From positions 1,597 to 65,596 of the forward strand of contig CAZXHG010000013.1 in NCBI GenBank assembly GCA_964639985.1: a DNA stretch of 64,000 nt, read 5' to 3'. The notes beneath the pieces are model-generated. The model saw only the letters and a program-made list of their open reading frames with translations. It had not been told where the DNA came from and ran no database searches. A program made the translations under genes and the position numbers. This document shows positions 1 to 24,089 of the stretch, piece by piece (positions within the stretch are counted from its first letter, which is position 1; the number at the start of each line of letters is the position of its first letter). This DNA comes from an uncultured Rickettsiales bacterium (GTDB lineage: Bacteria > Myxococcota_A > UBA796 > UBA9615 > CAYRNR01).

Positions 1-749
1 GGGTCGATCACCACGACCTTCTGTCCGCCACGGCGGTGGCACTGCACCATGCGGCCGAACAGGGTCGGGTGTCTCTCCGCGGGATCCGCCCCCACGACCA
101 GCACGGCGCCCGCCTCATCCATGGCATCCAGTGGCTGGCTGGCCCCGAAGAATCCGAGCCCTCGCTCCGCAGCCACCACCCCGGCCATGGCGTCCAGCCG
201 CAGGTTGCTCTCCACGGTCGCGCAGCCCAGGAAGCCGCGCAGCAGCCGGTTGAACACGAGGTGGGTCTCGGTGGGCAGACCCACGTCGAGGAAGGTTGCC
301 AGTCCCGAGGGCTTCTTCTTCGCGATCGGTGCCACGTGCTCACCGAGCCAGGCCAGGGCCTGCTCCCACGTCACCGCCTCGAGTCCACCGGTCGAGCCCT
401 TGGTCGCGGGATCACGGCGGAGTAGCGGCTGGCTGACGCGGCGATCCGGGTCCAGTCCCGCCGGGAACGCCATGCCACGGGTGCACAGGCGGCCGTAGTT
501 CACCGGTGACACGGGATCGCCCTTGACGGTCACCGCTCGGCCTCTGCGCACCCCCACGAACAGGGGGTCGGCCATGCCGCACTGGCCGCAGATGCCGCGG
601 TACCAGTGCTCCAGACCAGCCCCGGGGGCATGCAGATCCTGGGACAGCGCCGGGCACAGCCAGCCCAGCGCGGTGCCGCCCAGAGCGGCACTGCAGCCGG
701 TGGCCGCGGCCGCCCTCAACACGTCTCGACGGGTCGGTGTGTTGCCCAT
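1..749 (-). CDS. Tat-exported molybdopterin (Mo/W-bisPGD) oxidoreductase catalytic subunit, NapA/NasA/Fdh-like; runs off the window edge
   Basis: Not in the ORF track; translated by hand from ATG 749: MGNTPTRRDVLRAAAATGC (twin-Arg signal), GICGQCGMAD...KGDPVSPVNYGRLCTRG (N-terminal Fe-S motif), EAVTWEQAL, SNLRLDAM, VLVVGADPAERHP, KVVVID. Starts 4 nt after the upstream stop. Confidence 0.85.
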   Translation of the reverse strand, partial: MGNTPTRRDVLRAAAATGCSAALGGTALGWLCPALSQDLHAPGAGLEHWYRGICGQCGMADPLFVGVRRGRAVTVKGDPVSPVNYGRLCTRGMAFPAGLDPDRRVSQPLLRRDPATKGSTGGLEAVTWEQALAWLGEHVAPIAKKKPSGLATFLDVGLPTETHLVFNRLLRGFLGCATVESNLRLDAMAGVVAAERGLGFFGASQPLDAMDEAGAVLVVGADPAERHPTLFGRMVQCHRRGGQKVVVID

Positions 750-753
750 GGCT

Positions 754-1629
754 CTACCTCCCCCCCGCCTTCCAGGTGGTCAGGATCGGATCCGAATGCT
801 GCAGCCGGTACTCGGAGATCGCGCGGGCATGACACTGCAAGCAGATCTCCACGAACGCCTCCCGTGAAGCCTCGTCCAGCCGGGTCTCGTCGCCCTTCAG
901 CCGCGTCAGCATCCCACTCACGTCGTGGTCCATCACCGTGTCGCAGCGCAGGTCGTTGGTGTGATCGTGTACGTCGGAGAGGCGTACGTGGCACATGTGG
1001 CAGTTGGCGGCCGCGGGCACGTCGTCGGCGTCGAACCCCTCGCGGGCGAAGATCGTGCCCATCTTGGACTGCGCGTAGGTCTGCACGTGTACCGAGTCGC
1101 GGTGGCACGAGTTGCAGGCCGAGGGTTGCTTGACCTCCTCGAGGTCGAACGCGTGGGCGCGGTGGCACGAGTCGCAGCGGATCCCGCTGTCCGGGGTGTC
1201 CGCATGCAGGCCCTTGCGCATGTCCTGCTCTTCCTGGGGGTGGCAGGCCCGACAGCGGTCCGGCCCGGGGTGCGGCACGAACCCGGCCTCGTGCGTGCCG
1301 TGGCACGCCTCGCAGCCGACGCCCACCAGCGCGTGCAGGCTCGTGGCCCAGTCCTCGGTGGCGAACGAGGTCTGGGACGTGGTGTGGCAGTTGAGGCACA
1401 GGCTGGCCACGTGACCGGCGTCCCTGCCCGCGTAGCGCTCACCCACACCCTGGCTGTAGGTGAAGTGGTTGGCGGGCAGCTCCATGTCCAGGAACTCCTG
1501 GCTCCGTCCAGGCGGCACGAGCAGGTCGTCCGGGGCCGGAGGCGGGGCCTCGGCGCGGGTGCACCCCCCGATCCCGACCAGGACGGCCACGATCCAGAGG
1601 GCACTCGAAATCGAAAGTGATTTCAGCAT
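754..1629 (-). CDS. Heptaheme cytochrome c lipoprotein, HAO/octaheme-family fold
   Basis: Seven CxxCH motifs (CLNCH, CEACH, CRACH, CDSCH, CNSCH, CHMCH, CLQCH); lipobox-like LVGIGGC; ATG 1629 preferred over the TTG at 1647. Confidence 0.9.
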   Translation of the reverse strand: MLKSLSISSALWIVAVLVGIGGCTRAEAPPPAPDDLLVPPGRSQEFLDMELPANHFTYSQGVGERYAGRDAGHVASLCLNCHTTSQTSFATEDWATSLHALVGVGCEACHGTHEAGFVPHPGPDRCRACHPQEEQDMRKGLHADTPDSGIRCDSCHRAHAFDLEEVKQPSACNSCHRDSVHVQTYAQSKMGTIFAREGFDADDVPAAANCHMCHVRLSDVHDHTNDLRCDTVMDHDVSGMLTRLKGDETRLDEASREAFVEICLQCHARAISEYRLQHSDPILTTWKAGGR

Positions 1630-1663: not shown

Positions 1664-2857
1664 CTACATCACGTGTTCGTACGCCAGGTCCTTCACCCCG
1701 AAGGGATCGTGGCACTGCACGCACACGTTGCGCGTGGCCATCTGCTCGCGCAGCTGGGTGGACACCTCGTCCAGCAGCCGCTCGCCCTCGGACACGTCCC
1801 CGCTCGCCTGCAGCACCACGGCCGCGGCCATGGCCGCGGCGTAGTCCGCGCCCGGCCCGTGGCAGCCCTCGCAGGTCACGCCCTCCTGCAGCCAGGTGTC
1901 GGTGACCGGGTCGTACCCGGTGGTGTGGCACTCCAGGCAGGGGGTGTTGTCCTCCACCGCCTCGAGGCGGTCGAAGGAGGTGAACTTGGTGGCGCGCCAG
2001 CGCTCCACGTGGCGCCGCTGTCGCGCCTCGTGGCAGCGCAGGCAGGCACCGGAGCCCACGTAGGGCACTGGTCTGCCGGACGAATCGTAGCCCGTCGCGT
2101 CGAGGCCCGTCGGAAGCCGCGGACGCCAGTGGGTGGCGTTGGCCGCCCACCAGGTGCGCCAGCGCCCCACGGCCTCGGCTCGTTCGGCCGCGGGCGCGTG
2201 GTACGCGTACCCGAGGTCCCGGCCCGTCAGCCGGCGCAGGCTGGCCACGGCCGCAGCGCGCTCGGCCTTGTCCCGGTGGTCCAGGGCGTCGACCAGCGGC
2301 TCGAGGGTGACTGCCGGGCCGCGGGTCCAGGGGCGCAGCATCATGAAGCGGTGCGCCTCGTCCGAGCGCAGGGCGCGGCCGTTGCCCCCGTGGCAGACCG
2401 TACAACCCCAGCCCTGGTAGGGGCTCTGGGGCCCGAGGCCGGGGTGCGTGGCAGCGAGGTCGTCCATGCCCGGGTGGCAGGTCCCGCAGCGCTCCACAGT
2501 GCCGTCGGGCGTGATCTGCTCGTCGATCCCCCGGGGGCGCTGCTCCCAGCGGGCGAGCCTCGCCTCGGCATGGTCGAGGTCGGCGCGGTACGCGGCCAGG
2601 TGCCGCAGCTCCGCTTCCCCGGCGTCGGGGGAACTCGCGGCCTCCTCGGCGCGGCGGTAGTCCAGGGATCTCTGCACGTCGTCGAACGTCTGTTGCTCGG
2701 CGAGCAGCGAGGCCTGCGCCGCCCCGCGCTGCTCGGCCACTCGCTGTCGCTGCACGGCGCGGTGCTCGGGGAACACCACCCGCCAGCACAGGGCGACCGT
2801 CACGGCCAGCGCGGCCACGGCGGCGATCGCGAAAAGGCGGCTGGGATCGCGGGTCAC
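1664..2857 (-). CDS. Membrane-anchored hexaheme cytochrome c
   Basis: 3' part of track ORF 1664..3457. GTG 2857 with GGAGG upstream, directly after the upstream stop. N-terminal TM helix, six CxxCH (CGTCH, CTVCH, CLRCH, CLECH, CEGCH, CVQCH), C-terminal c554-like YVGSGAC domain. Confidence 0.9.
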   Translation of the reverse strand: MTRDPSRLFAIAAVAALAVTVALCWRVVFPEHRAVQRQRVAEQRGAAQASLLAEQQTFDDVQRSLDYRRAEEAASSPDAGEAELRHLAAYRADLDHAEARLARWEQRPRGIDEQITPDGTVERCGTCHPGMDDLAATHPGLGPQSPYQGWGCTVCHGGNGRALRSDEAHRFMMLRPWTRGPAVTLEPLVDALDHRDKAERAAAVASLRRLTGRDLGYAYHAPAAERAEAVGRWRTWWAANATHWRPRLPTGLDATGYDSSGRPVPYVGSGACLRCHEARQRRHVERWRATKFTSFDRLEAVEDNTPCLECHTTGYDPVTDTWLQEGVTCEGCHGPGADYAAAMAAAVVLQASGDVSEGERLLDEVSTQLREQMATRNVCVQCHDPFGVKDLAYEHVM

Positions 2858-2859
2858 GC

Positions 2860-3534
2860 TCAGTACACCCCCTCCAGCCAGGGCCACACCCAGGCCCAGC
2901 CCGGACCGCGGAACAGGGCGCCGACCAGGGACAGCAGTACGGCCTCCACTGCGATCCAGGCTCCGATCCAGTGCACCGCAGGCCAGCGGGCCAGTCGCGC
3001 CATCGGCCCACGCGGCCGCTGGATCAGGCCGGGTGCGACCGCGAGGGCGCCGAACAGCGCCGTGGGCACCAGCAGGAGCCAGGGCGCGTGGTCCGCGGTC
3101 AGCGTCATCAGCCCCAGCGCGATCACCAGGCCACCGGCCATCAGCGCGGCCCTCCGCGGTTCGTTCGCCTCCCCGGTCCACAGCGGCCGGTGGGTCAGGT
3201 CCGGGCGGGTGTAGGGCACGACCAACAGCAGCACCACCGCGGCCGCGGGCACGGCCACCCCCGAGATCACGGGCGGGTAATAGTGCAGCAGTTCCTGCAG
3301 GCCCACGAAGTACCACGGCGCCTTGCTCGGATCCGGGGTCACAGACGGGTCCGCGATCTCCAGCAGGGGAGCGTCGACCACCAGGGCCAGCACCGACAGC
3401 GCGGCCATCACCAGCAGCCCGGCCGCGCACTCCAGCAGGAAGAAGCGGGGGAACCACGGCACCGTGGGCCGCGGATCACGGTGTGGCCCGTCCGGCGCGA
3501 CGTCGTGCACGCGTTGTCCGCCCGGCGTGGTCAT
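2860..3534 (-). CDS. petD: Cytochrome b/b6 C-terminal subunit (subunit IV / PetD-like)
   Basis: WFPRFF, APL..IADP..TPDPSKAPWYFVGLQELL (PEWY-equivalent), several TM helices; adjacent to cytochrome b6. Confidence 0.9.
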   Translation of the reverse strand: MTTPGGQRVHDVAPDGPHRDPRPTVPWFPRFFLLECAAGLLVMAALSVLALVVDAPLLEIADPSVTPDPSKAPWYFVGLQELLHYYPPVISGVAVPAAAVVLLLVVPYTRPDLTHRPLWTGEANEPRRAALMAGGLVIALGLMTLTADHAPWLLLVPTALFGALAVAPGLIQRPRGPMARLARWPAVHWIGAWIAVEAVLLSLVGALFRGPGWAWVWPWLEGVY

Positions 3535-3538
3535 CGGT

Positions 3539-4273
3539 TCACAGGGGGCGGGTGACGCCCCCGTCCTTTCGTACGCGCCAGAAGTGAAGAGCCATCAGGC
3601 CGACCGTGGCCAGGGGCAGCACGATGCAGTGCAGCACGTAGAAGCGCAGCACGGCTGCGCCGCCCACCTCGTCGCCGCCGAGCAGGAGCCGGCGGAGGAA
3701 CTCGCCCACCAGGGGCACGGACGCCGCCATCTTCGTGCCCACGGACACGGCCCACAGGGCGAGCTGGTCCCAGGGCAGCAGGTAGCCGGTGTAGCTCAGC
3801 GCCAGGGTCAGCAGCAGCAGCGCCACCCCCACCACCCAGTTGAACTCCCGCGGCGGCCGGTAGGCCCGCGCCACGAACACCCGCACCATGTGCAGCAGCA
3901 CCGTGGCCACCATGCCGTGGGCCGCCCAGCGGTGCAGGTTGCGCATGAATGCGCCCGCGGGCACCGCGTACATCAGGTCCTCGATGTCGTGGTAGGCGTC
4001 GGGCACGGTGGGGCGGAACCACACCATCAGGTAGATGCCGGTCACGGTCAGCGCCACGAACAGCAGCGCGGACAGGCCGCCGAGGCAGAACGTGGTGGCG
4101 AAGCGGTAGTCCAGCGGGTGCACCTTCACCGGCCGGATGTGCAGCAGCACGCTGGACAGCACAAACCGGGCGCGGCCGGTGGGGGTGGACTCGTACGCCG
4201 TGCGCACGAACGAACGCCACGGACGCGATCGCGCCACACGCCCCAGCCAGCCCTCGCGCCGTGGCTCGCTCAT
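3539..4273 (-). CDS. petB: Cytochrome b6-type N-terminal subunit (PetB-like)
   Basis: [56 protein letters not shown]; FCLGG heme-ci cysteine; ATG 4273 overlaps the Rieske stop. Confidence 0.95.
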
Positions 4274-4701
4274 GCGGGCTCCCCGTCCGGATCGACCACC
4301 AGCCGGCCCTGGTCGTCCAGGCCCACGGCCACGGCCACCAGGTCTTCCCGCGCTGGACCGTTGAGCACGTGGCCGTCCGGCTCGAAGCGGCTGCCGTGGC
4401 AGGGACAGTGGAAGCGCTCCTCCTCCTCCAGCCACCGCACCACGCAGCCCAGGTGCGGGCAGACCGTGGACAGGGCGTAGAACCCGTCGGCGGTGCGGCC
4501 CACGGCCAGCTGGTCCGCGGGCAGCAGCAGCACGCCGTCCAGCGGGATGTCCTCTGGAAAGCCCGCCACCACCGCTGCGTCGGCGCGCGTCGACGGCCAG
4601 GGCGTGGCGAACCGCAGGGACACGAACGCCCCCAGGCCGCAGGTCGCGGCCAGCGCGGTCGCGCCCTGGCGCAGCAGTCGGCGACGGGTCGGGTCAGCCA
4701 C
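4270..4701 (-). CDS. petC: Rieske 2Fe-2S protein with Tat signal
   Basis: TRRRLLR signal; CPHLGC and CPCHGSRF boxes; GPA motif. Confidence 0.95.
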
Positions 4702-6172
4702 GGTGCGGCTCCTCGCCCAGCTGGTGGGCGGACAGGCACTCGGCCGGACACCGCTCGATGCACAGTCCGCAGCGCAGGCAGCGTGAGCCGTCCCAGTGCA
4801 GCCCGTCCAGCAGGCGCAGCGCGCTCACCGGGCAGCCGTTCACGCAGCGGCCACAGGCCAGGCAGGCGTCGGCGTGGGCGCGCGGACCGACCTGGGTCCA
4901 GCAGTCCAGGCAGCGCCGGCCCTCGGCCGATGGCTCGTCGAGACGAGGGGAGTGGGGTGGGTTGGGGTGGGACGGACCGCGCTCGAACCCGGGGCCGGGG
5001 CCCGGTACGTGGACCGCTCCTCCGGCGAGATCGCGGTCGATGTGGGAGGCCATGGAGTGGCCGTGGGCCACGGCCGCGATCACCGTTCCCGCGCCGGTGA
5101 GGTCGCCGCCGGCGATGCCCCCCGGCGGGGCCTCCAGGCCCGGCGTACGGCCGATGGCGACGACCACGCTGTCCACGGCCAGCCGAGTCCGGCTGGCTGG
5201 CCTCACGCGAGGGCGGTAGCTGCCGCGCGGGTCGTGGTACGTGGCCACCCGCGAGTGGATCACGGCGGTGACCCGATCGTCTCCGTCGATCGAGACGGGG
5301 ACCACGCCAGTGACCTGCCGGACGCCCTCGTCCCGGGCGGCCCGCGCCTCCTGCTGGCGGGCGCGGCCCTCGAGCGAGAGTCGGCGCACCAGCAGGGTCA
5401 CGTCGCGGCCCGTTCGGACCAGCGCGCGCGCGGCGTCGACGGCCGTGTCGCCCCCTCCGATCACGGCCACGTCGTGGCCGAGGCCGAGGTCATCGCCCGC
5501 CACGCCCGCGCGCAACACGTCGAGCCCGTCGTGCACGCCAGGGAGGTCGTGGCCCGGTACGTCGAGTGGCCGACCGCGGGGCAGTCCCGTGGCCACGGCC
5601 ACGCGCTCGAAGCCGTCGGCGAGCAGGTCATCGACCGAGTCCACCGGGGTGCTGCAGCGCAACTCGAACCCCGCGTCGAGCATGGCGCGGACGTCGGCCT
5701 CCAGCGCCTCGGTGGGCAGGCGGAACCGGGGGATGGCGTGGCGCGGCATGCCGCCGGGCTCGGCGTGGGCCTCGAACGCGGTCACGGCGTAGCCGAGCAG
5801 GGCCAGGTCGTAGGCAGCGGTCAGGCCGGCCGGTCCGGCTCCGACGATGGCCACGCGCCGTCCCTCTCCTCGGTCCAATCGGGGTGGCGTGGGAGGGGGC
5901 GTACCGCCCTCGACCGCGACGCGCTTGAGTCGCCGCAGGGCCAGGGGCTCGTCAACGGCCGAACGGGCGCAGGCATCCTCGCAGGGGTGGGTGCAGATGA
6001 AGGCGCAGGTCCGCACGAACGGGTTGCGCAGGGCGGCGAGGCGGAATGCCTCGTCCAGATCACCGCGGGCCACGGCGCGGGCGTAGAGCCCGGCCGGTGT
6101 GTGCACCGGACAGGCCCGTCGGCACCCGATCCCTTCCAGCAGCGGCAGCAGCAGCTCGGGCCGGCTCCCCAT
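4694..6172 (-). CDS. FAD/NAD(P)H-dependent oxidoreductase, GltD/NfnB/DsrL-like, with C-terminal 2x[4Fe-4S] ferredoxin domain
   Basis: CRRACPVH and CAFICTHPCEDAC Fe-S motifs, VAIVGAGPAG (FAD), VIGGGDTAVD (NAD(P)), CLACGRCVNGCP and CLRCGLCIERCP; AGGAG RBS before ATG 6172; no signal peptide. Confidence 0.9.
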   Translation of the reverse strand: MGSRPELLLPLLEGIGCRRACPVHTPAGLYARAVARGDLDEAFRLAALRNPFVRTCAFICTHPCEDACARSAVDEPLALRRLKRVAVEGGTPPPTPPRLDRGEGRRVAIVGAGPAGLTAAYDLALLGYAVTAFEAHAEPGGMPRHAIPRFRLPTEALEADVRAMLDAGFELRCSTPVDSVDDLLADGFERVAVATGLPRGRPLDVPGHDLPGVHDGLDVLRAGVAGDDLGLGHDVAVIGGGDTAVDAARALVRTGRDVTLLVRRLSLEGRARQQEARAARDEGVRQVTGVVPVSIDGDDRVTAVIHSRVATYHDPRGSYRPRVRPASRTRLAVDSVVVAIGRTPGLEAPPGGIAGGDLTGAGTVIAAVAHGHSMASHIDRDLAGGAVHVPGPGPGFERGPSHPNPPHSPRLDEPSAEGRRCLDCWTQVGPRAHADACLACGRCVNGCPVSALRLLDGLHWDGSRCLRCGLCIERCPAECLSAHQLGEEPHRG

Positions 6173-6248
6173 CGACTCCTCGGGTTCGTGCAGCTCTATT
6201 GAACCACAGGCGCGGGGGTCAAATGAAAGGAACGGCGAAGTAATTCCT

Positions 6249-6266
6249 GCCAACAGGATTGTTGGC
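6249..6266. repeat. Perfect 7-bp inverted repeat GCCAACA-GGAT-TGTTGGC
   Basis: Read directly from the intergenic sequence between the cytochrome c stop and the flavoprotein start; function unknown. Confidence 0.5.
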
Positions 6267-6268
6267 CA

Positions 6269-6637
6269 CTACTCCTCGGCGTCGACGCGGTCGAAGTGGT
6301 ACTGCAGGAAGGACTGGATCCTCGCCCCGGTGCCAGGGGAGATACCGGAGTTGGGCTTGCGGGACATGCGGGTCACGTAGCGGCTCCAGTCGTCGCCGCG
6401 GTACTCGGAGTTGATGGATCGGGCCAGGGTGTGGCACTTGCTGCACTTCTTGGCGTACAGCCGGTACAGCTCCTGCATGTCTTCGGGGTAGTCGCTGACG
6501 TCGATGGCGGCCGGGCCGAAGTCGGCGTCGAAGACCTTCTCGTCGCCGTCTTCCTCCTGCGCCAGGCCAGGCGTGGTCATCGCGCCCAGCACCACGATCG
6601 CGGTCACCGTCAGCAGCCATGCCAGCATCGTTCTCAT
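6269..6637 (-). CDS. Exported monoheme cytochrome c
   Basis: Signal peptide ending PGLA-Q; CSKCH; distal Met candidate in YVTRMSRK; GAGG 9 nt before ATG 6637. Confidence 0.85.
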   Translation of the reverse strand: MRTMLAWLLTVTAIVVLGAMTTPGLAQEEDGDEKVFDADFGPAAIDVSDYPEDMQELYRLYAKKCSKCHTLARSINSEYRGDDWSRYVTRMSRKPNSGISPGTGARIQSFLQYHFDRVDAEE

Positions 6638-6795
6638 CGCATCCATCCTCGTCGTGTGGGGTACGACGTGCGGGTGCGCCCGCGTATTCACAACCGCACC
6701 GCCGCGGACCATGGTGATCGGTTCGGCGGACGCCAGCAAGTGCAATTGCGCAGGGGAGTGGTTCGGGATAGCTTGTGGCCTTTCTGGAGGACGCC

Positions 6796-8916
6796 ATGGA
6801 ACCCACCCGGGAGATCATGTGGAACGTGCACTGGATGCGGTGGCCGATCTACGGCCCGGCGCTGATCGCGTTCGGCATCATGGCGTGGGGATTCTGGAAG
6901 GAGTATGGACGCCGCAGCGTGCTGTTCCGCGCTGCCCGGCCGGACGACGAGCGGCGCAAGGAACTCGGCCGGCGGATCTTCGACGCGCTGCGCTACCTGT
7001 TCGGCCACCAGCGGATCCTGCGTGAGACCTACCCCGGCGTGATGCACTGGCTGGTGTTCTTCGGCTTCTTCGTGCTGTTCGTGGTCACGCTGCTGGTGAT
7101 GGTGCAGGAGGACTTCACGGCCCTCTTCTTCGGCGTGGAGTTCCTGAAGGGCCCGACCTACCTGGTGTGGTCGCTCGCCGGCGACGTGTTCGGACTGGGA
7201 CTGCTGATCGGCGCGGGCATGGCGCTCGTGCGTCGCTACATCGCGCGGCCGAAGCGGCTGGACAGCCGGCCCATGGAGTTGTGGGCGCTGCTGCTGATCC
7301 TCGGGTTGCTGCTGACCGGGTTCTTCGCCGAGTCCCTGCGCATGGTCGGGGACGGCGAGGTGGGCGCGCCCTGGGCGCCGTGGTCGCCGGTGGGCTGGCT
7401 GGGCGCCCTGCTGCTGCGGGGCACGGGCATGGGCGAGGGCACGGTGCGGCTGTTGCACGCGGTGGACTGGCAGGTGCACATGGTGCTGGCGCTGGTGTTC
7501 GTGGCCACCATCCCGTGGTCGAAGTTCTGGCACATGGTGCCCGGCTTCGCCAACGTGGTGCTGCGCAACGAGGCGCCCAAGGGCGATCTGCCGACCCTGG
7601 ACATGGAGGATCTCGAGGACGAGACCCGCGAGACCTTCGGTATCCACCGGGTGGACGAGTTCACCTGGAAGGACCTGCTCGACACCGAGGCCTGCATGCG
7701 ATGTGGCCGCTGTACGGACGCTTGCCCGGCGTTCGCCACGGACAAGCCGCTGAACCCCAAGAAGATCATCCAGGATCTCAAGGCCAACGCCGACGAGAAG
7801 CTCGGCCTGTGGTTCGACGCCGCGGGCAACGTCAAGGAGGACGTGGACCGCGAGGCCGAGGGCACGACGCTGGTCCACGGCTCGGACGCGGGTGAGGACC
7901 TGCCCGCGGGCGCCATCGGGTTCGAGGAGCTGTTCGCCTGCACCAGCTGCCGCGCGTGCATGGAGGCGTGCCCGGTTCACATCGAGCACGTGCCCAAGAT
8001 CCTGTCCATGCGCCAGTACCTGACGCTGATGATGAGCGACTTCCCCAAGGAGGCGCAGGCCGTGATGCGCAACCTGGAGAACAACGGCAACCCCTGGGGC
8101 ATCGGCATGGCCCAACGCGGCGAGTGGGCCGAGGGCCTGGACGTGCCCACCTTCGAGGAGGCCCCGGACTCCGAGTACCTGCTGTTCCCGGGGTGCGCGG
8201 GCGCGTTCGACGACCGCAACCGCAAGGTGGCGCGGGCTACGGCCGAGTTGCTGAAGCGGGCAGGCGTCAGCGTCGCCACGCTGGGCGGCCAGGAGACCTG
8301 CTGCGGCGACCCGGCGCGGCGCATCGGCAACGAGTACCTGTTCGCCATGCAGGCCCAGATGAACATCGAGCTGTTCAACAGCTACGGCGTGAAGAAGATC
8401 GTCACCATCTGCCCCCACGGATTGACCGTGCTGGGCACGGAGTACCGCCGCCACGGCGGCGACTTCGAGGTGGTGCACCACGCCGAGCTGCTGGCGCAGC
8501 TGGTGGCCGAGGGCCGGCTGACGCCGGAGCGGACCCCGGACGGCGTCAAGAACGTGACGTACCACGACTCGTGCTACCTCGGTCGCTGGAACGACATCTA
8601 CGAGCCCCAGCGCGACATCCTGCGTGCGCTGCCCGGCGTGCACGGGGAGGAGATGCCGCGCCACGGCTCCACCAGCTTCTGCTGTGGCGCGGGCGGCGGA
8701 CGGCTGTGGATGGAGGAGAACCTCGGCACGCGGATCAACCACGACCGGGTGAACGAGGCGTTGGGCACGGGCGCGGACACCCTGGTCTCGGCCTGCCCCC
8801 ACTGCATGATCATGCTCGGCGACGGCGTGTCGGGCATGCAGAAGCAGGACGACCTGGCGCTGAAGGACGTGGCCGAGCTGCTGCTCGACGCCCTCGGCGA
8901 CCGCGGAGGGGAGTGA
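6796..8916 (+). CDS. Membrane-bound heterodisulfide-reductase-like Fe-S protein (NarI-like TM + 4Fe-4S dicluster + two CCG domains; FadF/HdrF type)
   Basis: TM helices with His residues; CMRCGRCTDACP and CTSCRACMEACP; ETCCG and FCCGAGGG; YHDSCYLGR; GGAGG before ATG 6796. Confidence 0.88.
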   Translation: MEPTREIMWNVHWMRWPIYGPALIAFGIMAWGFWKEYGRRSVLFRAARPDDERRKELGRRIFDALRYLFGHQRILRETYPGVMHWLVFFGFFVLFVVTLLVMVQEDFTALFFGVEFLKGPTYLVWSLAGDVFGLGLLIGAGMALVRRYIARPKRLDSRPMELWALLLILGLLLTGFFAESLRMVGDGEVGAPWAPWSPVGWLGALLLRGTGMGEGTVRLLHAVDWQVHMVLALVFVATIPWSKFWHMVPGFANVVLRNEAPKGDLPTLDMEDLEDETRETFGIHRVDEFTWKDLLDTEACMRCGRCTDACPAFATDKPLNPKKIIQDLKANADEKLGLWFDAAGNVKEDVDREAEGTTLVHGSDAGEDLPAGAIGFEELFACTSCRACMEACPVHIEHVPKILSMRQYLTLMMSDFPKEAQAVMRNLENNGNPWGIGMAQRGEWAEGLDVPTFEEAPDSEYLLFPGCAGAFDDRNRKVARATAELLKRAGVSVATLGGQETCCGDPARRIGNEYLFAMQAQMNIELFNSYGVKKIVTICPHGLTVLGTEYRRHGGDFEVVHHAELLAQLVAEGRLTPERTPDGVKNVTYHDSCYLGRWNDIYEPQRDILRALPGVHGEEMPRHGSTSFCCGAGGGRLWMEENLGTRINHDRVNEALGTGADTLVSACPHCMIMLGDGVSGMQKQDDLALKDVAELLLDALGDRGGE

Positions 8917-12571: not shown

Positions 12572-15118
12572 ATGACTCTCGCGCGGATCCCGTGGGCGTG
12601 GCTATCGATCGTGGCGTGTGCGCTGGCCTGGCCGGCCGCGGCCCATTTTCCCCACGATCCGATGGCCGAGATCGCCATCGACGCGAGCGGTGAGCGGATC
12701 GTGGCGCAGTACCTCTACCCCGGGCGACGGCTGGTGGTGGTCAGCGAGGATGCGGGCCGCACCTGGGCGTTCGTGGCCCCCGAGGCCGCGCGGGAGCAGC
12801 TCGACAGCCTGCAATTCGCCGGCGGCGAGTCCCTCGTCGCCGCGGACGCCATGGCGGCCCACCCCTGGGTGAGCCACGACGGCGGCTACCGCTGGGACGC
12901 GTTGTCCGAGCCGGACGGCGCGCCCGTGCACCACGTCGCGCCCGCCCCGGGCTACGACGAGCAACCCACCCTGTTCGCCGGCACGGAGCTCGGCGTGGCG
13001 CGCAGTGATGATGGTGGCGCCACGTGGACCACGCTGGCAGGCGCGCCGGGCGGTCCCGTGAGGAAGATCGCGGTGGCGCCTGGCTGGCCGGACGATCCAG
13101 TGGTGGTCACCGTGGGGGACGAGGGCGTGTGGTTCGGCGAGGACGGCGGGCTGGACTGGCGACTGGCCCTGGGGCCGTCGGAGCTCCCCGCCGTGGTGAC
13201 CCTGTCGCCGCGGTTCGCCGAAGACGACCGCCTGTGGATCGGCACCCGGGACGGCCTGCTGCTGCGCAGCGACGATCGCGGAGGGGAATGGACGACCGTG
13301 CGCCCCGAGCCGGAGTCCATCGGCGCTCTCGACGAGATGGTGCAGGACCTGCTGGCCCTGTCGGACCAGCGCCTGCTGGCGGTCACGGCCAGCTACGGGG
13401 TGCTGTGCAGCGACGACGCCGGGGATTCGTGGGCCATGTGCTCCGAGGGGCTGCCGGCGCGGACCAGCCAGTTCAGCAGCAGCTGGGGACACTATCGTCG
13501 GCTCGATCGGGCGGTGAGCTCGCCCGACGAGGTGGTGCTCGGGGCCTGGGAGGGGCTGGTCGCGAGCCAGGACGGCGGGGCCACGTGGGAGGAGCGCTGC
13601 GCGCTGCAGCCGACCTACGTGCGCTCGGTGGGGTTCTCGCCGGCCTATCCCGACGATCCGAGCCTCTGGGTGGGTTCGTACGGCGCGGGGGTGTACGTGA
13701 CTCGCGACGGCGGGCTCGGCTGGACCGTGCTCGACGGGCTGCCCTACGCCCTGCACACCGAGGCCGTGGCCGTGAGCCCGGCCTGGCCGCACGATCCGCG
13801 CATGTTCGTCATCGGCTCCCGCCGGCTGCTGGTGTCGGCGGACGGGGGCCTGGGGTTCGCCGTTCAGGAGTTCCCGGACGTGCAGCTGATGCACCAGGTG
13901 GTGCTCGCCCCGGACTTCGACCTGGGGGGCCCGGTGATGGCCACGGGCACGACCGACGACGAGGGGCACTGGGGGGTGGTGCGCAGCGACGACGGCGGCG
14001 TGAGCTGGGAGCAGGTGTGGCTGGCGGCCGAGCCCCCCGCGCCCCAGATCACCCGGATCGCCTTCTCGGCGGTCGCGGCGGACGTGCTGTACGGAGCCCA
14101 GCGGGAACCCGCGGCCGTGGTGATATCCCGGGACGGCGGCCGGAGCTGGACGGAGCTGCAGGCCGTGGAGGGCGACGACGAGCCCGCGGCCCTGGAGGTG
14201 CTGGCAGTGGATGGCGCCGACCGCGTCGTCGCGCTGATGCCCGGAGGCCAGGTCTGGCTCGGAGGCGCCGACGCGGGGTCGTTCGACCTCGTGACCGACC
14301 TGGGCGCCGCCGTGATCTGGGGTGGGGTCGGGGGGACGGGCTCGGATGTGCTCCTCGCCTCGCTGGATCCACCGGCCCTGGTGCGGTCCCTGGACCGGGG
14401 CGAGAGCTGGCAGCTGCTCGAGGTGCCCTTCGGGTCGGTGGTGCTGGCTGCGGCGGTGCCGCCGGACCATCCGGACGACCCCACGGTGGTGGCATCCACC
14501 CACTACGGCACCTTCGTCTCCTGTGACGGGGGGAGCGCGTGGCAGCTGCTGGATCGCATGGTGCGCTGGGAGCACGGCGCGTGTGACCTGCGCTACCCGG
14601 CGATCGAGCCCGACCTGCTGCTTGGCCCGGGCACCGGCGGCGCGGCCGCCGTGATGCGCAGCGCGAGCGACGCGGTCGAGGTCGCGTTCCACGGCCGCGC
14701 GGTGCGCTGGCTGTCCTGGCGGGGCCCGGCGTGGGGCGCGGCGGACGTGTGGCTCGACGGCGAGGTGGTGGCCCACGTCGACCTGGCCGCGGATGTGGCC
14801 AGCGGTCCCGTGGTGGTGTTCGAGGAGGATCTCGGCGAGGACGGTGAGCATCAGCTGCGGGTGGAGGTGACCGACGCGCGTGGCGGCGTGGTGGTGGATG
14901 CGATCGAGGTGGAGCGCGACGCCGTCGACAACGGCCCGGACGAGCACTACGAGAGCATGGACTGGTGCGTGGACCTGCCGGCGTGGGAGGAGCCCACGCC
15001 GATCGGCGGCGGGTGCTGTGCTTCGGGGGACGGCGGCGCGCCCGAGGTGCAGGTGGGCGCGATGATCGTGCTGTTGGGGGTGGTCTGGGGCCGCCGGCGA
15101 TCCGGGGCGGGAGGGTAG
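12572..15118 (+). CDS. Surface protein with BNR/Asp-box beta-propeller repeats, jelly-roll domain and MYXO-CTERM-like anchor
   Basis: Signal peptide ending AAA-H; more than 10 S-x-D-G-G-x-x-W repeats; C-terminus GGGCC + hydrophobic helix + RRR. Alternative start at ATG 12530. Confidence 0.85.
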   Translation: MTLARIPWAWLSIVACALAWPAAAHFPHDPMAEIAIDASGERIVAQYLYPGRRLVVVSEDAGRTWAFVAPEAAREQLDSLQFAGGESLVAADAMAAHPWVSHDGGYRWDALSEPDGAPVHHVAPAPGYDEQPTLFAGTELGVARSDDGGATWTTLAGAPGGPVRKIAVAPGWPDDPVVVTVGDEGVWFGEDGGLDWRLALGPSELPAVVTLSPRFAEDDRLWIGTRDGLLLRSDDRGGEWTTVRPEPESIGALDEMVQDLLALSDQRLLAVTASYGVLCSDDAGDSWAMCSEGLPARTSQFSSSWGHYRRLDRAVSSPDEVVLGAWEGLVASQDGGATWEERCALQPTYVRSVGFSPAYPDDPSLWVGSYGAGVYVTRDGGLGWTVLDGLPYALHTEAVAVSPAWPHDPRMFVIGSRRLLVSADGGLGFAVQEFPDVQLMHQVVLAPDFDLGGPVMATGTTDDEGHWGVVRSDDGGVSWEQVWLAAEPPAPQITRIAFSAVAADVLYGAQREPAAVVISRDGGRSWTELQAVEGDDEPAALEVLAVDGADRVVALMPGGQVWLGGADAGSFDLVTDLGAAVIWGGVGGTGSDVLLASLDPPALVRSLDRGESWQLLEVPFGSVVLAAAVPPDHPDDPTVVASTHYGTFVSCDGGSAWQLLDRMVRWEHGACDLRYPAIEPDLLLGPGTGGAAAVMRSASDAVEVAFHGRAVRWLSWRGPAWGAADVWLDGEVVAHVDLAADVASGPVVVFEEDLGEDGEHQLRVEVTDARGGVVVDAIEVERDAVDNGPDEHYESMDWCVDLPAWEEPTPIGGGCCASGDGGAPEVQVGAMIVLLGVVWGRRRSGAGG

Positions 15119-15122
15119 CGGG

Positions 15123-20151: not shown

Positions 20152-22908
20152 TCAATCGCTCAGGGTGAACGCGAGGTACTCCCCGGGGGGGATCTGGAAG
20201 CGCCGCTGCAATGACTCGGCGTCGGCGGTCCAGGCCGCCTCGCCCGCGGCCTCGGCCGAGAATTCCAGCGAGCCCACCATGGTGGAGGACAGGACCCCGG
20301 TGTTGGACAGCACCAGCGCCCAGCTGCGGGTGCGGGGCAGCTCCACGGACAGCTCCCCGGTGGCCGCGTCCAGCAGCGACGTCTGGGCCTCGAACGGCTC
20401 GCCGTCCTTGAACAGGTCGTAGTTGGCCGCGTCCACCACGAACGCGTCGAGGTGGCCGCCCTCCTGCTCGAGGGACAGCTTGCCGGAGTAGGAACCGTCC
20501 GCCTCGATGCGGTGGCCCTCCACGTCGAAGGCGAGCTGCCAGCGCGCGTCCAGCGGCTCACCGTCGGTGAGGTCGGCTTCGGCCAGGTCCAGGTCCGCGG
20601 GCATGGCCCCGCCGATCGCCTGGGTCAGCAGGTAGGTCTCGTAGGGCTCGCTCATCTCCACGCCCTGATACAGGGAGTCCCCGCCGGGTTCGTTGCCGAT
20701 GGGCGACGCGACCGAGTACCCATAGGGGTTGTACTCCCCCACCGTGGACGAGGCGAACCCGTCGATGTCCGTGATCAGCTCCGCAGCCCAGGTCCACGCG
20801 TCCGGGTAGCCGTACACCGCCCACGTGCCATAGACGGTGACCACGGCGCCGTCCACGGGGCGGCCGTCCTCGTCGGTCACCTCGAACTCCAGGTAGGACG
20901 GGAGGGTCACGTACTCGTCGGTCATGGTCGTGCTGATGTAGGTGTCGCCGCGGCCGCCCGTCATGGCGTACAGGCGGTTGGTGGACAGGCCCGGGTCGGA
21001 GGCGTCGGGGTGGCGACCCGCGTCGAGGTCGTCGCAGTCGCCCGTCTCGAGGGTCCAGCCGTCGCCGTCCCGGTCGTGGCCGCGCAGCCCCTCGTCGGCC
21101 TGGCCGTCGCAGTTGTCGTCGATGCCGTTGGGCAGCTCGACCGCGTCGGGGTTCACGTCCGGGTTGGTGTCGTCGCAGTCGTGGAAGATGATCTCCACGC
21201 CGTCGCCGTCGTTGTCCTCCATGGACGTGCCGCTGTCGGCGTCGCCATCGCAGTCGTCGTCGACCAGGTTGTCCACCTCGGTGGCGCCGGGGTGGATCGT
21301 GTCCACCCAGTCGTTGCAGTCCCCGTCGGCGATGGTGTAGCCGTCCCCGTCCCTGTCCAGGTACGGGTCGAGGAAGCCCTCGTCGGCGGTGCCGTCGCAG
21401 TTGTCGTCCACTGCATTGCCGGTTTCGGCCGCGTCCGGGTGGCGGGCCGCGTCGTTGTCGTCGCAGTCACCGCCGGCGATGGTGTAGCCATCCCCGTCCG
21501 CGTCGGCCTCGTCGAGCCCGTCGTCGGCCGTTCCGTCGCAGTCGTCGTCCAGACCGTTGGTCGCCTCGGTGGCGCCCGGGTACACCGCGGCGTCCGTGTC
21601 GTCGCAGTCACCCGCGGACAGGGCCACGCCGTCACCGTCCGCGTCCAGGTCGGCCTCGGACATGCCCGGGTCGGCCACGCCGTCGCAGTCGTCGTCGTAG
21701 CCGTTGTGCAGCTCGGGAGCGCCCGGGTAGACGTCCGCGTCGTTGTCGTCGCAGTCGAAGGTGGCGGGTGAGTACCCGTCGCCGTCCACGTCGTCGGTGT
21801 CCAGCGCGTCGTCGGCGATGCCGTCGCAGTCGTCGTCCTCGCCGTCGCGGCTGATCCCGCCCTTGTAGTAGTTGAAGTAGTCCACGTGGGTCCCGATGGG
21901 CTCCCAGGCGACCCAGCGGTCGTCCCAGAACTCGTCCCAGGTGTGGTCGTTGGAGCGCGCGCCCACGTTGCGACAGGGGATCAGGGCGGTGCGCGCGGCG
22001 GCCGAGGTCAGGTCCGCGTGCTCGCCGCAGTTGCCGGCCCCCACCGTGTAGATGCGCACCGGCTGGATCGGCCGCTCGTCGCCCGCGCCGAAGTCGATGG
22101 TGTCCCAGACGAACTGGATGATCTCGCCGATGGCGCCGTTGTCCGTGCGGGTCTCGGCCTTGCTGTTCCACACCGTGTCGATGCCGTCGAAGTAGTCGGC
22201 CAGCAGGTAGCAGGTGTGGTCTCCGGGGCACTCGTCCGCGGCCGCGTCCCAGAGGAACTCGCGCCAGAACCAGCCGTTGTCCGGGCTCGTGCCGCTGGCG
22301 TTGACCCAGCCGTCGATGAACAGCGGGTACTCGTCCTCCAGGCGTGGGTGGACCACGTACCAGTAGTAGATGTCGCGGTCGATGGTCTTGTCCTCGACGG
22401 TGCCGTCCTCGTACCCGATGCGGTACGTGGCGGTCGTGTAGTAGTCTGGATCGATCCCCGGTTCACCCACGTCCTCGAGCTGCACGAAGTCCAGCAGCGG
22501 ATCGTAGGCATAGATCAGCTCGGCGTTCACGGTCAGCAGCTCGGGGTAGAACGTGTGGTACTCCAGCACCGAGCGGGACGTGTGGGCGATGGCGAATGCG
22601 ATCTCGTCGATCAGGTACACGTCCTCCGCGTCCACGATCAGCATGGCCAGGTCGTCCTGGTCCTCGTCGTTGAGCCGGTCGAAGGCGATGGCCAGATCGT
22701 CGGTCAGCCAGGTCGGCACCAGCTCGAGCGCCTCGTACGCCAGCTCGGTGAGGCCCAGGGGTTCGTGCACCACCTCCAGCAGGGGCGGGTCGACCGGGTC
22801 GCTGACCTCGGCGGTGGTGTCGTCGTCGTCGTCGATGTCCTCGGTGGTGGGGCAGGCGACGAGGGTGAGGGCGAACAGGCTACAGGCCAGGGCCAGCAGG
22901 TGTCTCAT
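20152..22908 (-). CDS. Lipoprotein with a transglutaminase-like core and MopE-type metal-binding repeats
   Basis: LTLVAC lipobox, poly-Asp linker, GNCGEHA...DHTWDEFW...WVAWEP, tandem DGDG..DCDD...PGA.E..NG.DDDCDG repeats; GGAG RBS before ATG 22908. Confidence 0.85.
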   Translation of the reverse strand: MRHLLALACSLFALTLVACPTTEDIDDDDDTTAEVSDPVDPPLLEVVHEPLGLTELAYEALELVPTWLTDDLAIAFDRLNDEDQDDLAMLIVDAEDVYLIDEIAFAIAHTSRSVLEYHTFYPELLTVNAELIYAYDPLLDFVQLEDVGEPGIDPDYYTTATYRIGYEDGTVEDKTIDRDIYYWYVVHPRLEDEYPLFIDGWVNASGTSPDNGWFWREFLWDAAADECPGDHTCYLLADYFDGIDTVWNSKAETRTDNGAIGEIIQFVWDTIDFGAGDERPIQPVRIYTVGAGNCGEHADLTSAAARTALIPCRNVGARSNDHTWDEFWDDRWVAWEPIGTHVDYFNYYKGGISRDGEDDDCDGIADDALDTDDVDGDGYSPATFDCDDNDADVYPGAPELHNGYDDDCDGVADPGMSEADLDADGDGVALSAGDCDDTDAAVYPGATEATNGLDDDCDGTADDGLDEADADGDGYTIAGGDCDDNDAARHPDAAETGNAVDDNCDGTADEGFLDPYLDRDGDGYTIADGDCNDWVDTIHPGATEVDNLVDDDCDGDADSGTSMEDNDGDGVEIIFHDCDDTNPDVNPDAVELPNGIDDNCDGQADEGLRGHDRDGDGWTLETGDCDDLDAGRHPDASDPGLSTNRLYAMTGGRGDTYISTTMTDEYVTLPSYLEFEVTDEDGRPVDGAVVTVYGTWAVYGYPDAWTWAAELITDIDGFASSTVGEYNPYGYSVASPIGNEPGGDSLYQGVEMSEPYETYLLTQAIGGAMPADLDLAEADLTDGEPLDARWQLAFDVEGHRIEADGSYSGKLSLEQEGGHLDAFVVDAANYDLFKDGEPFEAQTSLLDAATGELSVELPRTRSWALVLSNTGVLSSTMVGSLEFSAEAAGEAAWTADAESLQRRFQIPPGEYLAFTLSD
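20995..21850 (-). repeat. In-frame tandem coding repeats (six full plus two half units of about 45 aa)
   Basis: Recurring gccgtcgcagtcgtcgtc-type DNA corresponds to the DCDD/DDDCDG protein repeats. Confidence 0.85.
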
Positions 22909-23012
22909 GGCGGATCTCCGGTGGGTGCGTGGACATTGTCGCACGGAGGGGGCCGGGACTGGAGGGAAAGCCGAACGCTGCGGCCCATGCTGGAACATGG
23001 GCCCCGAGGGGA

Positions 23013-24089
23013 CTACGCGTCCTCGGCGATCTGGTACACGACTCGCAGCTGCGCGCTCTCGGGCGGCATGGTCTCGAACACGAAGTCGAGGCTGTTGGAC
23101 ACGCGGTTGTAGGTGTACGAGTACTGCTGCAGGTAGGTCTCGTCCTCGAAGATCTCGAACTCCTCCTCGGAGCCGTCCTCGCCGTCCGGGTCGAGCCACA
23201 CCGCCAGGGTGCCCTCGACCGGCACCAGGCTGAGGTGGAACTCGGTGCGCAGGCCTGCCGCCTCCAGCCCGAGCTGGGTCATCACCTCGGTCCAGTCCTG
23301 GGTGCAGATGCTGAAGTTGGTGGCGTGCTCGTCACCCAGGGCGGTGTAGACCTCGTAGTAGCCCCGCCCGGGGTCGGCCTGGCCCCACGAGCTGTTGCAG
23401 CCGCTGGGCTGGTCCCCGACGATGGCCGCGAAGTGGATCATGTCGATGGAGTGCGGGCCCTTGAGCGTGGTCAGCCAGGGGATGTACTCCATGTAGCTGA
23501 TCGCCTGGCAACCCGCCGTGCTGCCGTCCACCTCGTCGGACACGATCACGATCGACAACAGCGCGTCCTCCCGGTAGAAGCCGGCGTTGTAGCCGTCCAC
23601 CAGCGGCGGCGTCAGGGCGCGGTAGCTGGCCTCGAGGCCCACCTCGCACGAGCCCACGCCGTCCGAACCCATGGTCATGTTCGCGGTGAACGCACCGACC
23701 GGGTCGGGCGTGCTCGGCTCGATGTACCGGGTGGTGCCGTACAGCTGGCCGATCGGCGGCTGGCTCTGCCAGTCGTCGAGCACGGTGACGCCGATGTGGT
23801 AGTCGAGGCCGGAGTCGACGAAGAACTGGATGAAGTTCCAGAAGTTCGTCATCAGTGCCTGCTGCTCCTCCTGCATGGAGCAGGAGTTGTCGACCACGAA
23901 CAGGATGTCGCTGGCCTCGGCCGTGCGCTGGATGAAGATGTCCTCCTGCATGGTCTCGCCGAGCTGTTCGGGCTGCTCGGCAGGCCGCCAGTCCCCTGGT
24001 CCGATCATGTTGTAGTCCTGGCAGCCGATGCCCAGCAGGCAGCCGGTGGCCACGGCGAGGAAGACGCCGAATCGAATCATGCGAGCCAT
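23013..24089 (-). CDS. vWA-like domain lipoprotein
   Basis: LLGIGC lipobox; SDILFVVDNSCSMQEEQ, EVGLEA, IVSDEVD; GAGGAG RBS; paralog of 8958-9914. Confidence 0.75.
   Translation of the reverse strand: MARMIRFGVFLAVATGCLLGIGCQDYNMIGPGDWRPAEQPEQLGETMQEDIFIQRTAEASDILFVVDNSCSMQEEQQALMTNFWNFIQFFVDSGLDYHIGVTVLDDWQSQPPIGQLYGTTRYIEPSTPDPVGAFTANMTMGSDGVGSCEVGLEASYRALTPPLVDGYNAGFYREDALLSIVIVSDEVDGSTAGCQAISYMEYIPWLTTLKGPHSIDMIHFAAIVGDQPSGCNSSWGQADPGRGYYEVYTALGDEHATNFSICTQDWTEVMTQLGLEAAGLRTEFHLSLVPVEGTLAVWLDPDGEDGSEEEFEIFEDETYLQQYSYTYNRVSNSLDFVFETMPPESAQLRVVYQIAEDA

Follow-up and report, generated by a model that had tools for sequence, protein, structure and literature searches.

A heptaheme cytochrome of HAO ancestry that lacks the catalytic heme, a probable electron wire encoded between an anammox-like Rieske/cytochrome b complex and a molybdenum enzyme

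Can a multiheme enzyme lose the heme at which it acts and persist as a conductor of electrons? This question is raised by a gene at positions 754..1629 (minus strand) of a 64,000-nucleotide stretch of contig CAZXHG010000013.1 (assembly GCA_964639985.1, deposited as an uncultured Rickettsiales bacterium), the whole of which is called the window below. Its open reading frame (ORF), profile searches, alignments, and an AlphaFold2 (AF2) model together indicate a c-type cytochrome of 291 amino acids with seven hemes ("the heptaheme"), which is derived from the HAO family and lacks heme 4 and the C-terminal domain of those enzymes. A preliminary description of the window had suggested that an enzyme scaffold was here reused as an electron wire. 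That idea, formerly a guess, has become a supported proposal because the gene lies in the context of a Rieske/cytochrome b (R/b) complex and a molybdenum (Mo) enzyme. We regard it as highly probable that the heptaheme is a non-catalytic, HAO-derived electron wire. The statement as a whole, that a lipid-anchored wire of this kind connects an anammox-type R/b complex with the Mo enzyme, is likely to be correct, and the evidence leans modestly toward the Mo enzyme as the electron partner of the heptaheme.

Seven heme motifs in an HAO-like order

The ORF begins with an ATG at position 1629 and ends with a stop codon at 756..754, with a TTG six codons upstream as an alternative start. Its translation contains exactly seven CxxCH motifs, the number given in the preliminary description, with their first cysteines at C78, C106, C126, C152, C172, C210, and C263. 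No CxxCK or longer heme-motif variants were present in the protein, so the count is seven rather than eight, and all 59 family members examined either have seven motifs or are fragments. The motifs are not a product of chance, because 0.0025 CxxCH would be expected in 291 amino acids at the background rate and the six-frame translation of the entire window contains only 15 (seven in this gene, six in the hexaheme gene upstream of it, and one in a monoheme gene). A signal peptide (1561..1629, minus strand) with the lipobox I-G-G-C23 was predicted from a hydrophobic segment at residues 1–25 and from the invariance of C23 in 30 family members, and it is followed by a Pro/Ala-rich tether (residues 24–40). 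Judged by its sequence, the heptaheme is a lipid-anchored periplasmic cytochrome.

When the single sequence was searched against the PDB, the best matches were HAO-family chains (6t5e, 2.4e-7; 4n4j, 2.7e-6), and a profile of 30 family members matched 4qo5 (1.4e-12), 4n4j (2.2e-12), 6t5e (3e-12), and 6h5l (2.8e-11), as well as 6hif and 4fas. The protein also passed the Pfam HAO model PF13447 (28.2 bits; cut-off, 21.9). With the family profile, HAO lay beyond the range of a word-indexed homologue search but was reached by an exhaustive profile search of 1.84 billion representatives; the nearest proteins outside the family, taken from the latter search, were small octaheme HAO-like proteins, including P0085, P0087, and P0118.

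Hidden Markov model (HMM) alignments to 4n4j, 6t5e, 6h5l, 4fas, 6hif, and 4qo5 were collinear and paired hemes 1–3 of the query with HAO hemes 1–3, and hemes 4–7 of the query with HAO hemes 5–8, as the preliminary description had done by eye. The HAO heme-4 motif (CAHCH in 4n4j) had no counterpart in these alignments. On the minus strand, CLNCH (C78–H82, 1384..1398) is the heme 1 equivalent and is followed by the distal-His motif W94..S97.H99, and CLNCH...W..S.H is aligned with the heme-1 region of HAO. The heme 2 equivalent is CEACH (C106–H110, 1300..1314), within VGCEACHG and followed by H113, and the heme 3 equivalent is CRACH (C126–H130, 1240..1254), within CRACHPQ and followed by H142. 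Next comes a short junction of residues 143–151 (1177..1203), where the octaheme relatives are approximately 25 residues longer and have the heme-4 CxxCH. Beyond it, CDSCH (C152–H156, 1162..1176; H159 after it) corresponds to heme 5, with CDSCHRAHAFD aligned to CSGCHTRHKFD of HAO. The heme 6 equivalent CNSCH (C172–H176, 1102..1116), the region of the HAO motif SKHG, the heme 7 equivalent CHMCH (C210–H214, 988..1002; H235 after it), and the heme 8 equivalent CLQCH (C263–H267, 829..843) follow in this order, the last of these 24 residues from the end of the protein.

The motif spacing also identifies the missing heme. Between the equivalents of hemes 1-2-3-5-6-7-8, the spacing is 28/20/26/20/38/53 in the heptaheme and 28, 20, 26, 20, 38, and 50–53 across its family; in the nearest octahemes, the corresponding intervals are 27, 22–23, 51 (41+10), 20, 36, and 49–51. 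Only the interval that spans heme 4 disagrees, being 25 residues shorter in the heptahemes, and in the multiple alignment the heptaheme gap coincides exactly with the octaheme heme-4 segment. The claim in the preliminary description that heme 4 is the one lost is thus upheld by both spacing and alignment, and the separation of about 21 residues that it had noted between the equivalents of hemes 3 and 5 is exactly 21 (residues 131–151, between motifs three and four). Its further claim, that the C-terminal helical region with the cross-linking Tyr is missing, agrees with a tail of 24 amino acids after the last motif, compared with a median of 156 in 87 HAOs. The C-terminal domain that carries "GAYH" in the octaheme relatives is absent from the heptaheme; judged from its distance to the C-terminus, the Tyr of this motif appears to sit where the cross-link Tyr is expected. 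Without the helical domain, trimerization of the HAO type is unlikely.

An AF2 model was built from a 146-sequence alignment that included octaheme relatives (pLDDT, 83.3; pTM, 0.75); a model from the 30-sequence family alignment alone was not used (pLDDT, 49). A Foldseek search of the PDB with the former returned 11 matches, all of them HAO, HDH, or IhOCC (an Ignicoccus octaheme), with E-values of 1.7e-7 to 1.8e-4 and query-normalized TM-scores of 0.49–0.56, and no structure outside the HAO family at E<1. This comparison had been set beforehand as a test of the HAO fold proposed for the protein, and the fold stood. The best explanation of these data is that the heptaheme evolved from an octaheme HAO-type enzyme by two deletions, one of the heme-4 segment of approximately 25 residues and one of the C-terminal domain with the cross-link Tyr. 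The protein falls outside the definition of the HAO enzyme family, which requires eight motifs, five-coordination of heme 4, and the presence of the C-terminal domain, yet it is clearly a homologue with the HAO fold.

Candidate axial ligands for all seven hemes

Ligand columns were compared across the 59 members of the heptaheme family and 87 HAO-family proteins. The columns of H142, H159, and H235 contained His in all 146 sequences (87/87 HAOs). At H99, in the W..S.H motif, His was present in the heptaheme family and in 70 of the 87 HAOs, the remainder having Lys or Met. H113 was conserved in 59/59 family members; its column was poorly aligned in the HAO set, where the "CHGxxH" motif that follows heme 2 has its second His next to the position of H113. 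Position 190 (1060..1062, minus strand) was Met in every heptaheme (59/59) and His in every HAO (87/87). The translation reads S188-K189-M190-G191, which confirms the change from SKHG to SKMG seen earlier and makes M190 a putative ligand of a His/Met heme.

The remaining conserved residue, H181 (1087..1089, minus strand), was invariant in the family (59/59) and aligned with the His of a "D-H" pair five residues past the heme-6 His, which in the HMM alignment is His268 of the catalytic pocket of Nitrosomonas europaea HAO (4fas numbering). The Asp preceding it was retained in about half of the heptahemes. In HAO, this His belongs with Asp267 and Tyr467 to the functional residues of the active site and is not listed as a ligand, the residue set being given as "His 2', 5', 7', 8'" plus Asp267, His268, and Tyr467 (PMC3814345). 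A further conserved His of HAO, in the C-terminal domain beside the position of the cross-link Tyr (99% of 87 sequences), had no counterpart in the heptahemes.

HAO thus has a distal His for each of its seven bis-His hemes and one more His in the pocket, whereas in the heptaheme one distal His is lost, another is replaced by Met, and the pocket His is invariant, which leaves seven conserved distal candidates (H99, H113, H142, H159, H181, M190, and H235) for seven hemes. Because the loss of the C-terminal domain removed one conserved axial His, the former active-site residue H181 probably had to take its place as a candidate axial ligand, a consequence that the preliminary description had overlooked. 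Such recruitment is suggested by the distribution of H181, which is kept together with M190 in all C-terminally truncated heptahemes, including the minimal 216-amino-acid P0084, and whose equivalent is lost in P0096, a protein without heme 4 that retains the C-terminal domain. Since seven candidates match seven hemes, an open heme site is unlikely, and we argue that all seven hemes would be six-coordinate. For the placement of individual ligands, E. coli NrfA offers an analogy; its ligands include His275 to heme 5 (the equivalent of HAO heme 8) and His393 to heme 4. By this analogy, M190 could be the ligand of the heme-8 equivalent at the end of the chain, and the His lost with the C-terminal domain could have been the ligand of the heme-7 equivalent; we offer both as leads. 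A Met ligand on the heme-8 equivalent would fit the His/Met "exit heme" envisaged in the preliminary description.

Further losses of heme 4

Heme 4 has also disappeared elsewhere in the HAO family. P0101 and P0227, anammox-associated HAO paralogues from Candidatus Scalindua and its relatives, keep the heme-4 segment and the C-terminal domain, but the heme-4 cysteines are substituted, the site reading GFALRH or GFALRN instead of the GCAQCH of close octaheme relatives. Here the catalytic heme was lost independently. P0096 represents another independent loss, by deletion, in which the C-terminal domain was kept. A further independent loss is seen in short sister heptahemes of 216–221 amino acids that likewise have SKMG. 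The gene for one of these (L046:9902-10567) lies downstream of an octaheme HAO-like gene, at a distance of 2.5 kb, with COX1/NorB-like genes nearby (neighbors at 6090-7379 and 14716-16032), and its product may serve HAO as a c554-like partner. In a metagenome scan, the short sister heptahemes (P0078, P0082, and P0084 types) had neither R/b nor Mo genes as neighbors; the operon described below therefore cannot be generalized to them.

A conserved module of eight genes

The heptaheme gene is the seventh in a strictly conserved module of eight genes, all on the minus strand of the window. Domain and transmembrane searches identified the first as a small monoheme cytochrome c of 122 amino acids (6269..6637). 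It is followed by a GltD-like FAD/NAD(P)-binding oxidoreductase with Fe-S domains (492 amino acids, 4694..6172), a Rieske [2Fe-2S] protein with a Tat-like N-terminus (4270..4701), a cytochrome b6-type protein (244 amino acids, 3539..4273), a subunit IV-like (PetD-like) membrane protein (2860..3534), and a hexaheme cytochrome c of 397 amino acids with an N-terminal transmembrane helix at residues 5–31 (1664..2857). After the heptaheme gene (754..1629), the module ends with a Tat-exported enzyme of the Mo-bis(pyranopterin guanine dinucleotide) (Mo-bisPGD) type, whose N-terminal 249 amino acids lie within the window (1..749). This gene is cut by the window edge and encodes 748 amino acids where it is complete (L041:10881-13127). 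From the GltD-like gene through the Mo gene, the intergenic gaps or overlaps are 2–34 nucleotides, a 96-nucleotide gap follows the monoheme gene, and the Mo gene starts 4 nucleotides past the heptaheme stop.

Heptaheme loci were collected from one genome per species (GTDB), which gave 15 loci. In seven of them, the heptaheme was 66–78% identical to that of the window and the metagenome-assembled genomes (MAGs) were labeled "Rickettsiales"; in the other eight, it was 38–43% identical and came from Gemmatimonadota, Eisenbacteria, and unclassified MAGs. The eight genes occurred in identical order in 13 of the 15 species-level genomes, from at least three lineages. At locus L007 (L007:6154-7033), the GltD-like gene was absent and the Rieske gene directly followed the monoheme gene, and the contig of L012 was too short upstream to judge the completeness of the module. 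The Mo gene lay directly 3' of the heptaheme gene in 15/15 loci. The heptaheme subfamily and gene context that the preliminary description had proposed to look for were thus found, as a family of 59 members and 15 loci with an R/b-Mo operon.

Two observations concern the ends of the module. The contigs of the window's own clade (L001–L007 and L041–L044) nearly all stop soon past the Mo gene, although they are independent assemblies. The distance from the Mo gene to the contig end is approximately 80–100 bp in the four contigs of the window organism, 0–0.6 kb in six of the seven GTDB loci of the clade, and approximately 1.2 kb in L006. A region that varies between strains, a repeat, or an rRNA operon may therefore lie immediately past the Mo gene, beyond the start of the window. 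At the opposite end, a divergent gene (6775..8916, plus strand) encodes a 713-amino-acid fusion of a NarI-like membrane domain, two 4Fe-4S motifs, and two CCG domains, resembling HdrD/DsrK/TfrB. The gene also adjoins the operon in L003, L004, and L007, and its product may be a quinone-linked partner.

Likeness to the anammox R/b complexes

Among solved structures, the Rieske protein of the window matched the anammox proteins Kuste4569 (9rk4, 1.3e-18) and Kustd1480 (9rk3, 4e-17) ahead of b6f Rieske proteins. The cytochrome b matched b6 at 1e-43 and carries the FCLGG Cys that is used for heme ci in b6. According to Pfam, NCBIfam, transmembrane predictions, and synteny, the operon has the architecture of the anammox complexes R/b-2 and R/b-3, with genes for a Rieske protein, a four-helix cytochrome b of the b6 type, subunit IV, a multiheme c that is anchored in the membrane and stands in for cytochrome f, and an NAD(P) oxidoreductase. 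In the anammox complexes themselves, Kuste4569-4574 and Kustd1480-1485, a b6-like cytochrome b and subunit IV are joined by a hexa-/octaheme c that replaces cytochrome f and by an NAD(P) oxidoreductase (PMC12954380, PMC12485887). Kuste4569-4574 has an additional HAO-like octaheme, Kuste4574, for which nitrite reduction has been proposed, with concurrent bifurcation of electrons to NAD(P)+ by the complex (PMC12954380, PMC12485887).

Taken as a whole, the complex of the window looks like an anammox-type R/b complex in a non-anammox bacterium. As in the complex with Kuste4574 (R/b-3), the gene for an HAO-family cytochrome directly follows that for the multiheme c, and the Rieske, b6, subunit IV, and NAD(P) oxidoreductase genes are all present. 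In contrast, Kuste4574 is an octaheme with a catalytic heme, whereas the heptaheme has none and a Mo-bisPGD enzyme is added. The hosts also differ, R/b-3 belonging to anammox bacteria and the operon of the window to high-GC non-anammox MAGs (Gemmatimonadota, Eisenbacteria, and, doubtfully, Rickettsiales). For Kuenenia, co-migration of the HAO-like subunit with the R/b complex has been reported (PMC12954380); for the window, the link is the co-occurrence of the genes in one operon.

The Mo enzyme

The best solved relative of the Mo enzyme was Desulfovibrio NapA (2NAP, 1.5e-55), which places it in the fold of the Nap/Fdh clade. In the column of the NapA Mo-ligand Cys140, 15 of 16 Mo-enzyme orthologues have Asp, the column of the nitrate-binding Arg354 has Leu in the Mo enzyme, and a role as a canonical nitrate reductase was dropped for these two reasons. 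In all 16 orthologues, the N-terminal cluster motif reads C-x2-C-x3-[D/E] rather than C-x2-C-x3-C, and the NCBIfam scores were all far below the family cut-offs. By these features, the Mo enzyme looks like an undescribed subfamily. Two gene predictions were set aside. A high-GC shadow ORF at L009 was rejected as the downstream gene, since it had no domains and tblastn showed the Mo enzyme in another frame. P0077 (1117 amino acids), an apparent fusion of the heptaheme and the Mo enzyme, was rejected because of its scrambled heme-3 region and internal Tat signal; it is most likely a frameshift, read-through, or gene-calling artefact in a metagenome contig.

Proposed function and alternative explanations

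The main heme chain of HAO runs 1-2-3-5-6-7-8, and heme 4 branches from it at heme 6. Without heme 4, the other seven hemes therefore still form a continuous wire. We propose that the heptaheme, itself without catalysis, would carry electrons between the membrane-anchored hexaheme subunit and the Mo-bisPGD enzyme, the likely path being from quinol to the Rieske protein, the hexaheme, the heptaheme, and the Mo enzyme. It would take the place of the octaheme Kuste4574, which is thought to be catalytic in anammox R/b-3, and would supply the Mo enzyme with electrons in the way that NapB or NapC supply NapA. A single His/Met heme formed with M190 would provide a higher-potential step at one end of the chain.

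Several points weigh against this proposal. Two residues of Nap, the Mo-ligand Cys and the nitrate-binding Arg, are missing from the Mo enzyme, whose reaction would set the direction of the electrons. Bis-His hemes placed after a Rieske center near +300 mV would entail uphill steps. HAO sequences were in the input alignment of the AF2 model, so that the fold match does not count as evidence separate from the sequence homology, and the N-terminal half of the heptaheme also matches MtrA/DmsE-type decahemes (6r2q, 8.8e-11; TIGR03508). Finally, a ligand count and the analogy with NrfA are the grounds for six-coordination and for placing M190 and H181 on individual hemes.

One alternative is that the heptaheme is a wire whose electrons go from the R/b complex to a different acceptor (for example, a soluble cytochrome, a component of the outer membrane, or an acceptor outside the cell), the Mo enzyme being served separately. 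The lipoprotein has no Asp at +2, so sorting to the outer membrane is possible, and the P0084-type sister heptahemes occur without R/b or Mo genes, so the wire module has varied partners. However, we consider this alternative unlikely, given that the Mo gene follows the heptaheme gene at every locus, even in lineages whose heptahemes are only 38–43% identical, that 4 nucleotides separate the two genes in the window, and that no further redox partner gene is conserved in the module.

It is improbable, too, that the heptaheme is still an enzyme, in which the loss of the C-terminal His left one remaining heme five-coordinate and created a new active site (by analogy with NrfA, at the heme-7 equivalent). 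The neighboring gene always encodes a catalytic subunit in its own right, the Mo enzyme, and there are exactly seven distal-ligand candidates for seven hemes, even in P0084. The absence of a counterpart to the C-terminal His and the invariance of H181 from the former catalytic pocket, with an Asp before it in about half of the family, would also suit an enzyme, but P0096, in which the C-terminal His is still present, does without H181, and this fits a ligand swap. The precedent for a surviving enzyme is that MccA and c554 lost heme 4 yet gained another catalytic heme (Soares et al., 10.1101/2022.02.24.481543).

There is very little likelihood that the seven-heme state is ancestral and that insertions gave HAO its heme 4 and its C-terminal domain, even though an alignment alone, without a rooted tree, cannot separate deletion from insertion. 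Catalysis at heme 4 is common to HAO, IhOCC, ONR, and NrfA, and their last common ancestor is inferred to have been an octaheme (10.1101/2022.02.24.481543). Moreover, heme 4 was lost separately within the HAO family (P0101/P0227 and P0096), and the retained equivalent of His268 can be understood only as a remnant of the heme-4 pocket. That the protein is a generic MtrA/DmsE- or c3-type multiheme cytochrome with a coincidental likeness to HAO can be dismissed, since the MtrA-type matches, to which Pfam c3/c7 matches in the N-terminal half may be added, span only residues ~73–190, whereas the HAO matches are collinear over seven motifs with six non-motif His positions in common, and Foldseek recovered only HAO-family structures at E<1.

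Beyond the role of the heptaheme as a wire to the Mo enzyme, the entire eight-gene module can tentatively be read as a counterpart, outside anammox bacteria, of the R/b complex that has been proposed to bifurcate electrons and generate NAD(P)H, with its high-potential terminal reductase exchanged for another. Catalysis would have moved from heme 4 of HAO to an unusual Mo-bisPGD enzyme with an Asp ligand, and only the shell of HAO would have been kept, as a His/Met-tipped wire. We offer this extension as a speculation with less than an even chance of being correct. If it is true, the host bacteria are a natural experiment on the anammox R/b bifurcation hypothesis, and an enzyme was turned into a cable within a single complex.

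Comparison with known systems

With the HAO/HDH family (PF13447; N. europaea HAO, 4FAS; Kuenenia HOX, 4N4J; HAOr Kustc0458, 6H5L), the heptaheme has in common the fold, seven collinear motifs, the distal-His positions after hemes 1, 2, 3, 5, and 7, and the equivalent of His268. It differs in lacking the heme-4 motif, and hence P460 or any catalytic heme, as well as the C-terminal helical domain with the cross-link Tyr and the adjacent conserved His. Moreover, it is a lipoprotein of 291 amino acids in an R/b-Mo operon, whereas HAO has 450–570 amino acids, and the His of SKHG is replaced by Met.

The closest functional precedent is MmcA of Methanosarcina, a heptaheme that arose from the octaheme OTR, lost the catalytic heme, and serves as a conduit of the Rnf complex (10.1101/2023.04.20.537704). 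Both proteins are thus heptahemes from octaheme enzyme families, without the catalytic heme, that act or would act as electron conduits of a membrane complex. However, MmcA belongs to the OTR clade, lost heme 2, has approximately 480 amino acids, is archaeal, and has no reported Met ligand. Neither the profile search nor Foldseek returned an OTR or MmcA structure or sequence among the PDB matches of the heptaheme. MmcA is a convergent analogue and not an orthologue. Heme position 4 was also "pruned" in MccA and c554 (Soares et al., 10.1101/2022.02.24.481543). These members of the NrfA/ONR/HAO superfamily resemble the heptaheme in lacking the catalytic heme at position 4, and c554 is the electron acceptor of HAO, but they belong to another clade and have another five-coordinate heme (position 1bis), and c554 is a tetraheme. 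Like NapB and NapC, which are multiheme c-type donors to a Tat-exported Mo enzyme of the Nap/Fdh clade, the heptaheme would donate to such an enzyme; there is no sequence kinship with them, and its chain hangs off a Rieske/b complex. The Mo enzyme of the window is itself distinguished from NapA by Asp instead of Cys at the Mo-ligand position.

In the open-access literature searched, we found no description of the heptaheme family, its operon, or a non-anammox R/b complex with a Mo enzyme. The heptaheme alignment illustrates how a multiheme enzyme may become a pure electron-transfer module, via a short deletion, the loss of a domain, a change from His to Met, and the probable reuse of a His. 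Comparable heme losses took place independently in other HAO-family proteins and, with MmcA, among the OTR enzymes, which suggests a general evolutionary route. Anammox-type R/b complexes with an NAD(P) oxidoreductase also appear to occur outside anammox bacteria, in at least three lineages and coupled to an undescribed Mo enzyme, and these operons are new material for testing what R/b complexes do. The conversion of an enzyme to a wire and the non-anammox R/b operons are notable to specialists and do not overturn current understanding.

Other features of the window

The GC content of the window is 0.66–0.75 (approximately 70%), and it encodes MopE-type repeat proteins and a PASTA-containing penicillin-binding protein; the "Rickettsiales" label of the closest MAGs is probably wrong. 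A 1015-amino-acid protein, unrelated to the heptaheme, is encoded at 20152..23199 (minus strand) and combines four MopE-type putative metal-binding repeats with a transglutaminase core.

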